A DNA stretch of 43,195 nucleotides from Conidiobolus incongruus B7586. Taxonomy: Eukaryota. Location of the stretch: the NCBI GenBank assembly GCA_000697335.1, contig JNEM01010568.1, forward strand, positions 1 through 43,195. Reading direction: 5' to 3'. Below the pieces are notes generated by a model. It did no database searches and had not been told where the DNA came from. It was given only the letters and a program-made list of their open reading frames with translations. Position numbers and translations under genes: made by a program. Below are positions 5,983-7,665 of the stretch, piece by piece. Within the stretch, counting starts at the first letter, position 1; each line of letters starts with the position of its first letter.

Positions 5983-6838
5983 TCAATTTTAAATGCTTTT
6001 TAAATCAATTATTACTCAAGACCACCGCCTACTCTTTAACTTAAAAAATAATAATTCAATAATTTTAAAAAATTAATTTTGATTTATTATATTACTAACT
6101 ATTAGTTATTTCTTTATTTTCATCTAGTTTTTGATTCGGTTGTATTGATCATAGTTTTATATTATGATATACTCAAATAGTAATAATACATTAATCACTC
6201 CAAACATTTTATATTACGCAATGTCTCTGGCTTTGAATTTCATTTATTTTTCACTTATTTATTATGAATAATATATTCATATTAACAATTCAAAGTGATT
6301 GGTGTATATTAATGAATTATATAGATTTTAAAGAATACATGGGCCTTTAAAATATTATATTCAAATTCTTAAAAGTGTAATTTCACCTTAAGTTATAACA
6401 ATTTTCTCACTTATTAATACCATTGTACTTAATGCATCTAAGTATATCATACACTCGATACCAATTTTTTGATATTTGAAATAATACAATAAAAATTTAT
6501 TTCAAAATTGTTCTATTGCGTAATTGAATAAATTATTTAACTATCTTAAACTTATTAACTCAATTATATTCCCCATAATCACAATAACTATTTCAAAATA
6601 CACAAATTTGTTTGCTTAAATTATCTATAGTTAAAATATTAATTTGATTTAATATTTGATGAAGTCATTCAGATTACAGTTTTTGAATTTATAGAGTTAT
6701 ATAATGACATAGTATAATAAATTATTTGATTAATTTAAACATTTAAAACAAGAAATAATCTCAAGTGTCAATTCTGAGTATTTGGTTTCAATATTTTTAT
6801 TGTCATGACGTGAAACAATACACTTTTTCCACTCCTTC

Positions 6839-7168
6839 AATGTCATGCCCTAACCTAGAAGCCACGACTGGTATGATACCACAAATTCTCACCTTAATAA
6901 GATTTCTCTTTTCTTCCTATTTTTTGTTTCCTATAACTAAAATAGGCCACTTACCATTTGACATTAACAAATCATCCATTCTATTTCATATGAATCTTCC
7001 TACTCCATATCCTACTCAATCTTATAATCGCACGGTAGCTGCCACTATCGCGCGAGGATTTGTCGAGCATGCTCCCTTCTTCGCTAGCTTGCAGAAGCAA
7101 GTCATCACGGCTCGCATTGCTAGAAGAATAATATTGTAGCTCTTTGAGAGCTCATGCATTTATTTGAC
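6839..7168 (+). ncRNA. Structured non-coding RNA candidate, possibly telomerase RNA
   Basis: GC-enriched island with several self-complementary stems found by eye: AATGTCA 6839-6845/TGACATT 6959-6965, CCTATT 6916-6921/AATAGG 6941-6946, hairpin 7028-7055, three-way junction 7062-7168. It contains CCCTAACC at 6848-6855. Boundaries are approximate. Confidence 0.4.
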
Positions 7169-7665
7169 TTTTAGCAGCTAATAATTTAACTCCTAAAATA
7201 AATGATACGATATTAAAATATTAATTGATTTGTTATAATGATATTGCTTGTTATTCTAATTACATATAATTACTGAGTATCATATAGTATATAATTTAAA
7301 GTATATTTTCAAAAATATAATAAATAAATGTCATTACCGTTTTAAATTCAAATTTGTTTATATGATTAAATACATAAATTTAATAATATTTGAATCACTA
7401 TGATATAGAATATCGATAATTTAACAACTACTGATTGGTATATTAACATTAGATGAAATTTATAAATATATTGCAAAAAATACTATATTGAAAGATGAAA
7501 GTAAGCAATATCAATTCTAAAAGGAATTTATGCTGATCAATAATATTTAATATTTTGTATAAAATAAAATCAAAGAAAAGAGAAGTTAAATCTTTATAAT
7601 AGCTTATGATGCATAGTAACTGTTTCTTTATAATATATTAGAAGAAATATAAAATGTTATGAGTG

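Follow-up and report, generated by a model that had tools for sequence, protein, structure and literature searches.

Results

A candidate telomerase RNA between the NDUFV2 and U6 genes

The window analysed here is the whole stretch of 43,195 nucleotides from Conidiobolus incongruus B7586. Between its NDUFV2 gene and a convergent U6 snRNA gene lies a GC-enriched island that holds a candidate telomerase RNA (TER) of ~410 nt on the plus strand (Table 1). The GC content of the island is 0.34 over 6760-6965, 0.29 over 6966-7027 and 0.47 over 7028-7172, against 0.19 and 0.17 in its flanks. All 17 stretches named in the original prediction were found in the DNA where it had placed them. It started the RNA at 6801 and gave it a length of ~330-370 nt; folding instead puts the start nearer 6764. 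The motifs and their order are read directly from the DNA, whilst all helices are predicted.

Table 1. Features of the candidate locus and its neighbours (positions in the window)
Feature	Position	Strand	Details and basis
NDUFV2 (complex I 24-kDa subunit), last exon	5608-5982	+	Upstream neighbour; stop at 5982
Candidate telomerase RNA	6764-7172	+	Both ends approximate, placed by folding and by the extent of the GC-rich DNA
Core-enclosing helix, predicted, 5' strands	6764-6779	+	6764-6771 with 6958-6965; 6775-6779 with 6949-6953
Template-boundary hairpin, predicted	6804-6847	+	6804-6811/6840-6847 plus 3 bp 6812-6814/6836-6838; last pair adjoins template
ORF of 99 codons, ATG start, overlapping	6840-7139	+	Rival or bystander; no homologs
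Putative template	6848-6857	+	CCCTAACC (6848-6855) or CCTAACCTA (6849-6857); sequence, folding
Small hairpin TGGTA-TGA-TACCA, predicted	6869-6881	+	Between template and pseudoknot; p ~0.6
Putative pseudoknot	6896-6946	+	Stem 1 6896-6902/6922-6928 (weak, register uncertain); stem 2 6916-6923/6939-6946; folding, motifs
GAT and U-rich loop	6901-6915	+	13-nt U/C loop 6903-6915 before stem 2; sequence
Core-enclosing helix, predicted, 3' strands	6949-6965	+	Folding
GC-rich stable hairpin between the two domains	7028-7055	+	p 1.00 for 7033-7038/7045-7050
Putative CR4/5 three-way junction	7062-7168	+	Outer helices 7062-7071/7153-7168, P6 arm 7077-7088/7119-7128, P6.1
P6.1-like hairpin AGCTC-TTTGA-GAGCT	7138-7152	+	Loop TTTGA; sequence
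U6 snRNA gene	7668-7776	-	Downstream neighbour, convergent; Rfam RF00026, 80.5 bits

Searches for a known family or a relative of the island gave little. No gathering-level match was found in the island with Rfam 15, whose models include telomerase, RNase P/MRP, SRP, snRNA and snoRNA, and 6300-7650 gave just two sub-threshold matches, both to C/D snoRNAs (E 2.4 and 3.7). Identities as U17/snR30, U3, RNase P/MRP or SRP, considered from their motifs, found no support in Rfam. A blastn search of 6750-7190 against 87 other loci returned no match below E 0.05. Relatives were also sought through neighbouring genes. Among metagenome contigs, none of the 598 pattern matches obtained through a ZIP-transporter alignment was related, and NDUFV2 (16 of the 64 parts of the collection) gave no close relative among the best 80 of 545 matches, the top identity being 67%. 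Viral contigs gave one short match of 58% and none to the U6 pattern, and no Conidiobolus NDUFV2 stood among the best 120 of 1459 matches. The ZIP-transporter gene itself (11260-12507) is 70% identical to P0121, whose cluster contains Conidiobolus coronatus KXN69478.1; the next named match, from Neoconidiobolus, is at 45%. This one gene points to a Conidiobolus relative (Entomophthoromycotina, Zoopagomycota) as the likely host.

Putative template, predicted boundary hairpin and core-enclosing helix

The sequence proposed originally as a TTAGGG template is present: CCCTAACC, read without a linker to the hairpin upstream, would supply 8 nt, or 1.33 TTAGGG repeats, with 2 nt of alignment. The repeat specified may instead be TTAGG, as CCTAACCTA, read with a 1-nt linker, would supply 9 nt (1.8 repeats) with a 4-nt alignment, and CTAACCTA, read with a 2-nt linker, would give TTAGG with a 3-nt alignment. 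Judged from the sequence, TTAGG, matched over 9 nt, would suit the template no worse than TTAGGG, matched over 8 nt, and we rate a pure TTAGGG repeat about as likely as a TTAGG or mixed one. The template bases have unpaired probabilities of 0.54-0.99 each in folds whose 5' end lies at 6700-6760. The caveat attached from the start, that a lone 8-nt match could be chance, was well placed: 8-nt matches to TTAGGG or TTAGG repeats occur four times in the window.

Immediately upstream of the template a boundary hairpin is predicted with p 0.93 in unconstrained folds with the 5' end at 6700-6760, and with p 0.88 from 6790. Its probability is just 0.15-0.31 when the RNA begins at 6800 and ends by 7172, where a helix over the first two template bases dominates (p 0.61-0.74). 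When 6815-7185 is folded, two bases of the template are paired in a helix 6841-6849/6870-6878 (p 0.94), and the P1, stem 1 and outer junction helices of the original prediction all have probability 0. In folds from 6700-6755, the pairing of 6764-6771 with 6958-6965 closes template and pseudoknot into a single ring in which the template is mostly unpaired. This 8-bp part of the core-enclosing helix has p 0.77-0.88 (5' end 6700-6760), or 0.52-0.85 depending on the 3' end, and the 5-bp part has p 0.54-0.61. The helix is a weak filter, being found with two of four shuffled pseudoknots. A further helix, 6783-6789/6858-6864, is also predicted (p 0.7) and would tighten the template loop.

A different closing helix had been put forward, a vertebrate-like P1 formed by AATGTCA (6839-6845) and TGACATT (6959-6965). 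The two strands are complementary, but their pairing probability is 0.00 in all 14 folds that contain them. In the folding model, the boundary is a local hairpin of the fungal or P1.1 type, not a vertebrate-type P1. Fungal templates are bounded directly on their 5' side by a stable helix, the template boundary element (PMC4993307). In Aspergillus this element comprises ~8 bp, for the most part with 2 nt between it and the template (PMC3603654), and it corresponds to the P1.1 stem of basal animals (PMC8480181). The predicted boundary hairpin and core-enclosing helix, both absent from the original prediction, match the fungal layout and therefore lend support to the candidate as a telomerase RNA.

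The putative pseudoknot

For the proposed H-type pseudoknot, stem 2, the U-rich loop and the A-tract are all present. Stem 2, originally CCTATT/AATAGG, extends to 8 bp with p 0.95-0.96 and holds four consecutive U-A pairs, at which U.A-U triples may form. Stem 1 (AATAAGA/TTTTGTT) is the part that did not stand firmly: it has several registers, of which 6881-6885/6923-6927 stacks equally well, and the stacking energy of -5.1 kcal/mol bears out the warning that it is weak. The strand that complements it best, 6812-6818 (-8.9 kcal/mol), is found upstream of the template; we know of no TR layout that explains such a pairing.

In Aspergillus pseudoknots the U-rich loop opens with GAU (PMC3603654), the stem-2 strand carries a run of U6GU and the A-tract is preceded by AC (PMC3603654, figure S3); the same trio is found here at the corresponding positions. 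A three-part pattern composed after comparing the locus with Aspergillus has one match in the window, at 6901-6942, where 0.03 would be expected. Without its third part the pattern is not rare (0.55 expected), and the full consensus AKUN0-2GAU has one mismatch here.

The CR4/5-like junction and the 3' end

The P6.1-like hairpin has a loop that agrees with NUNGN, the consensus in vertebrates and Neurospora (PMC3592445). Folded in isolation, 7058-7170 gives the outer helix with p 0.94, P6a with 0.71, P6b with 0.82 and P6.1 with 0.92, the P5 register being shifted, and in 7058-7168 the junction is the minimum. In 7058-7182 it lies at -25.6 kcal/mol versus -35.3 kcal/mol for two hairpins, ~10 kcal/mol worse, since the 3' strand of P6 is then taken up by 7168-7177; both P6 and the junction are lost once the RNA reaches 7175. 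The P6.1 hairpin and NUNGN loop of the CR4/5-like junction proposed earlier are present, whilst the junction as a whole is favoured just when the RNA ends no later than 7172. As it is favoured for the shorter RNAs alone, we predict that the RNA extends no further than the TTTT at 7169-7172. In the full 6760-7170 fold P6a has p 0.52, P6b 0.64 and P6.1 0.74, with just 0.15-0.16 for the outer helices, and the complete model, computed without pseudoknot or triples, comes to -73.1 versus -79.3 kcal/mol for the minimum, ~6 above it. The linker between P6 and P6.1 is 6-9 nt, in agreement with the caveat that it is longer than usual. An inner hairpin at 7100-7112 was considered as P6.1 and rejected, since its loop ATCAC has no G and just 3 bp of P6 would remain.

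The competing fold raises the question of whether the island encodes some other structured non-coding RNA, built around a U.A-U triple helix or a long 3' hairpin, such as a lncRNA or a diverged snoRNA-like species. Its helices are 6881-6890/7054-7063 and 6897-6904/7018-7025, with a long hairpin at 7117-7177; it is the minimum for 6815-7180 and 6815-7185 (z -4.0, helix p 0.83-0.92), it is the better fold by the ~10 kcal/mol given above once the RNA reaches 7182, and the locus adjoins the U6 gene. Inclusion of 6760-6800, however, lowers the probability of its two long helices, that of the first to 0.09-0.35. No Rfam match in 6300-7650 is better than the E 2.4 noted above, and the template-adjacent boundary hairpin and TER-like pseudoknot motifs would be left unexplained. 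We consider such an RNA very unlikely here.

Two known types of 3' end were considered for the telomerase RNA candidate. A search of 7140-7420 with 3'-processing consensus sequences of the ascomycete type (AT4-6G, GT[AG]NG, ATAAGT and ATACGT; from PMC3603654) gave neither an Sm site nor a 5' splice site, whether of yeast or Aspergillus type; branch-point-like 5-mers occur in the same interval, but are common in AT-rich DNA. For a box H/ACA 3' domain, Rfam gave no H/ACA match and a convincing second hairpin was not seen. After 7172 the GC content falls to 17%, and ACA triplets occur at 7262 and 7372 alone. T5 runs at 6794 and 6824 and a T6 run at 6920 all lie inside the candidate RNA, which sets it apart from a TR of the Pol III type. 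Such runs stop Pol III, and transcription by Pol II is therefore likely, judging from the sequence.

Chance controls

We wrote our own rules, strict and loose, for the boundary hairpin, the pseudoknot and the junction, with thresholds set after seeing the locus. When the template was kept fixed and its flanks were shuffled (n=3000), the hairpin arose in 76 shuffles, the pseudoknot in 4 and the junction in 13. In the same shuffles hairpin plus pseudoknot arose in none, and pseudoknot followed by junction in none. A bare NUNGN hairpin was found in 307 of 3000 shuffles and is at chance level alone. On both strands of the real window the strict rules gave 2 pseudoknot sites and 5 junction sites, and all three parts met at 8 of 84,990 positions, every one of them at this locus (6848-6850 and 6877-6881) and the template start included. 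Under the loose rules 35 of the 84,990 positions passed, 22 of them outside the locus. One of the three template matches that could be scored in the window passed, that at 6848, a fourth being too near the edge. None of 39 template matches in the 87 other loci (501 kb, mostly bacterial) passed, strict or loose, and a template-plus-loop pattern had six matches in prokaryote genomes, none satisfying the rules. Several of the features are thus at chance level singly, whilst the ordered combination is not.

Scaled to a genome of 40 Mb (an assumed size, with ~3,700 template matches), these rates correspond to ~0.006 chance loci under the strict rules and ~1 under the loose ones. The true rate lies between the two, as the strict values were chosen after the locus had been seen. 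Compared with shuffles (n=60), the plus strand folds with z -3.7 and the minus strand with z -1.05, and 3 of 98 background windows of 220 nt fold better than the best part of the locus.

These numbers also bear on a reading without any RNA gene, in which the island would be the decayed remnant of a mobile element, regulatory DNA or the distal part of the NDUFV2 3' UTR, and the motifs would have come together by chance. The loose estimate would allow one such locus per genome, at the assumed size, and the folding stability, though good, is not unique in the window. In addition, 6770-6802 may belong to a dispersed element, since it resembles 22354-22388 (83% over 35 nt, E 0.001). Around that look-alike (21400-26400) Rfam gave no match, and a 16-nt form of its motif is at chance level, with 3 matches and 11 of 100 shuffles. 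Against this reading stand the strict estimate and the asymmetry of folding between strands. An LTR or MITE had been named as an outcome that would count against a telomerase RNA; at the island we found neither LTR-like repeats nor a tandem array, nor terminal inverted repeats among the 25 longest of 51 inverted pairs, and the island is single copy within the window. We regard the absence of any RNA gene as most unlikely.

An overlapping open reading frame

The island had been described as having no recognisable protein. As regards homology this stands, but an ORF that begins with ATG spans the greater part of it on the same strand, and chance seldom gives one of 99 codons: 8 in 2000 whole shuffles, and 21-37 in 2000 block shuffles (1-2%). 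The main rival to the telomerase RNA is accordingly an orphan protein gene, with a product of 99 residues, the GC island as its exon and the RNA features as coincidence. Yet the ORF has no relative among 1.84 billion representatives and no Pfam family (Atlas best score 0.79, recognition 1188). Its synonymous-codon score is -0.017 per codon, versus +0.010 to +0.108 in 8 of 8 coding stretches of the window, and it does not show the GC1-over-GC3 pattern at its usual size. A protein would also leave unexplained the boundary hairpin and the core helix, which begin upstream of the ATG, and P6.1, which lies at and past the stop. We think an orphan gene unlikely as the explanation of the island, although the ORF could coexist with the RNA.

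Discussion

A match to the telomere repeat, together with predicted working parts in the right order, makes it likely that 6764-7172 encodes a telomerase RNA, and the best reading of the locus is that of an early-diverging, Conidiobolus-like fungus; we hold this with reasonable confidence. This was also the identity proposed originally. It has been strengthened by the boundary hairpin, the core-enclosing helix and the Aspergillus-like pseudoknot motifs, whilst the type of boundary and the 5' end have been corrected and the repeat may be TTAGG.

The candidate resembles a fungal TER of the Neurospora or Aspergillus kind in that a boundary helix and a core-enclosing helix are predicted to be present. 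The TERs of Neurospora crassa (PMC3592445) and Aspergillus (PMC3603654) have a core-enclosing helix, a local boundary helix of ~8 bp, a CCCUAA template, a pseudoknot and a junction, in the order predicted for the candidate; the likeness extends to GAU and a U-tract in loop 1 of the pseudoknot, an A-tract in stem 2 and a NUNGN P6.1. There are clear differences too. Pezizomycotina TERs are ~2,050-2,200 nt long, their boundary helix lies mostly 2 nt from the template rather than 0-1 nt as here, and their stem 1 is ~10 bp whereas that of the candidate is short and AU-rich. The candidate also has a longer P6-P6.1 linker and, downstream of the junction, neither an Sm site nor a 5' splice site; if the repeat is TTAGGG, its alignment is just 2 nt.

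Smaller and more distant TERs offer further comparisons. The putative TER of Malassezia (PMC12506658), found by comparative genomics, is likewise compact, with a template boundary element (TBE), pseudoknot and CR4/5, but it measures ~500 nt and has a conserved Sm-like site and covariation support, whereas the candidate is a single sequence with no Sm site. The Ustilago maydis TER (PMC9564094) has a T/PK domain with TBE and a CR4/5 with P6.1, as predicted for the candidate, and both lie downstream of a protein gene on the same strand, the candidate 780 nt past the NDUFV2 stop. The Ustilago RNA, of ~1,300 nt, has been shown to be cut from an mRNA 3' UTR (PMC9564094). Basal-metazoan TRs (PMC8480181) have a P1.1-type boundary hairpin inside a P1-closed core and a canonical CR4/5, as predicted for the candidate, in which, by contrast, a box H/ACA domain was not convincingly seen. 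Published TERs measure 900-2,400 nt in fungi and 239-609 nt in animals (PMC9564094), with ~500 nt for Malassezia and 675-2,470 nt for Ustilaginales (PMC12506658). At ~410 nt, the candidate would fall below the fungal sizes reported in the literature found and within the animal range.

The repeat that such a template would specify can be set against what is known of fungal telomeres. The ancestral fungal repeat is TTAGGG (PMC3622300, PMC7857110), although two-G repeats occur in Blastocladiomycota, T(2-6)AGG in Allomyces and TTTAGG in Catenaria (PMC3622300 supplement). Template alignment is 3-6 nt in Aspergillus (PMC3603654), a range that includes the TTAGG readings of the candidate (3-4 nt) and lies above the TTAGGG reading (2 nt). 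Mixed repeats are known from fission yeast, where they arise from an overlapping boundary (PMC4993307). For Conidiobolus itself, we found no telomere repeat in the literature, including PMC11105155, the TeloBase and TelFinder supplements and one of the two PMC3622300 supplements.

We propose that the 5' 200 nt would close into a ring (6764-6779/6949-6965) holding the boundary hairpin, the template in single-stranded form and a pseudoknot with a triple helix. TERT, copying the template from 3' to 5', would halt at the hairpin ending in G6847, then realign and start again. A halt at C6849 or C6850 would add TTAGG, whilst an enzyme that reached C6848 would add TTAGGG. The second domain required would be the 3' three-way junction (P6 and P6.1), which would attach to TERT at its RNA-binding domain. 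The U.A-U triples, TERT binding and catalysis are inferred here by analogy with known telomerase RNAs.

The known fungal telomerase RNAs in the open-access literature found are all from Ascomycota and Basidiomycota, and within that literature we found none published from Zoopagomycota (PMC12566771 reports none). Taken at its fullest, our reading is of the first Zoopagomycota telomerase RNA and the smallest fungal one in the literature found (~410 nt), which would template insect-like TTAGG, or mixed TTAGG/TTAGGG with the last C read part of the time, in a mostly insect-associated lineage. It would mature by neither the Sm/spliceosomal route nor an H/ACA one, and would carry a 3'-processing switch: trimming to the U-tract at 7169-7172 would remove the strand that otherwise sequesters P6, so that processing would turn CR4/5 on. 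That all of these elements hold together is doubtful.

In conclusion, as telomerase RNA is a well-known type of molecule, the locus would fill a gap and pose a question of biogenesis that can be tested, rather than reveal a new system. The model predicts a telomere repeat of TTAGG, TTAGGG or a mixture of the two, and a 3' end at or before 7172. If true, the locus would provide a seed for TR discovery across Entomophthoromycotina, and would show the small two-domain RNA, of the kind seen in animals, to be the ancestral form in fungi, with the 1-2 kb RNAs of ascomycetes as expansions.

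Possible alternative pairing within the candidate telomerase RNA

The loop of the predicted hairpin that abuts the putative template (the boundary hairpin) could form seven perfect base pairs with the loop of stem 2 of the putative pseudoknot. This helix would stack directly on stem 2, and is stronger than the stem 1 of the original prediction (6896–6902/6922–6928). Such complementarity either reflects chance or points to an unusual knot in which the template would lie inside loop 1.

At the 3′ end of the candidate, TTGAC followed by TTTTAG and CAG resembles a 3′ splice site preceded by a branch point, and a weak GT is found at 7136. 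The overlapping 99-codon ORF (6840–7139) would gain no length from such splicing.

Features of the window, with the evidence for each
Feature	Position	Strand	Evidence
Possible loop–loop pairing	6812–6818 with 6924–6930	+	Complementarity, folding energies
Bipartite AT-rich motif	6770–6802, 22354–22388, 12644–12668	+	Similarity within window
Branch point and 3′ splice site look-alike	7164–7177	+	Sequence
U6 gene, with apparent 5′ extension	7668–7793	−	Rfam match and sequence reading
tRNA gene	865–937	+	Rfam, 58.6 bits
RasGEF reading frame region, two places	33332–33482 and 36081–36300	+	TR rules; folding z-score
Gly/Asp/His-rich protein ORF	37320–37985	−	Translated sequence

Neighbouring features and the 5′ end of the candidate

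The convergent U6 gene seems to extend 17 nt beyond the 5′ end of the Rfam match: its 5′ stem would start at 7793 and contains a CCCC-TCCG-GGGG hairpin. Immediately 5′ of the 3′ U-tract is an additional hairpin (7676–7689; 5-bp stem, UUCG loop), an insertion relative to the Rfam model in the alignment. The alignment of the tRNA gives the anticodon AGC (Ala). Within the RasGEF region, the first place satisfies the loose telomerase RNA structure rules, which were set after seeing the candidate locus, and has no template; the second has the lowest folding z-score (−3.8) of the 220-nt windows sampled. The Gly/Asp/His-rich product, with repeats and a signal-peptide-like start, is likely a secreted structural protein.

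The AT-rich motif in the 5′ part of the candidate is repeated at 22354 (83% over 35 nt, E 0.001), and a weaker match lies at 12644 (E 0.054). Should the motif be a promoter or terminator element, the start of the RNA could lie near 6803, and the RNA would then lack the predicted core-enclosing helix (6764–6779/6949–6965).
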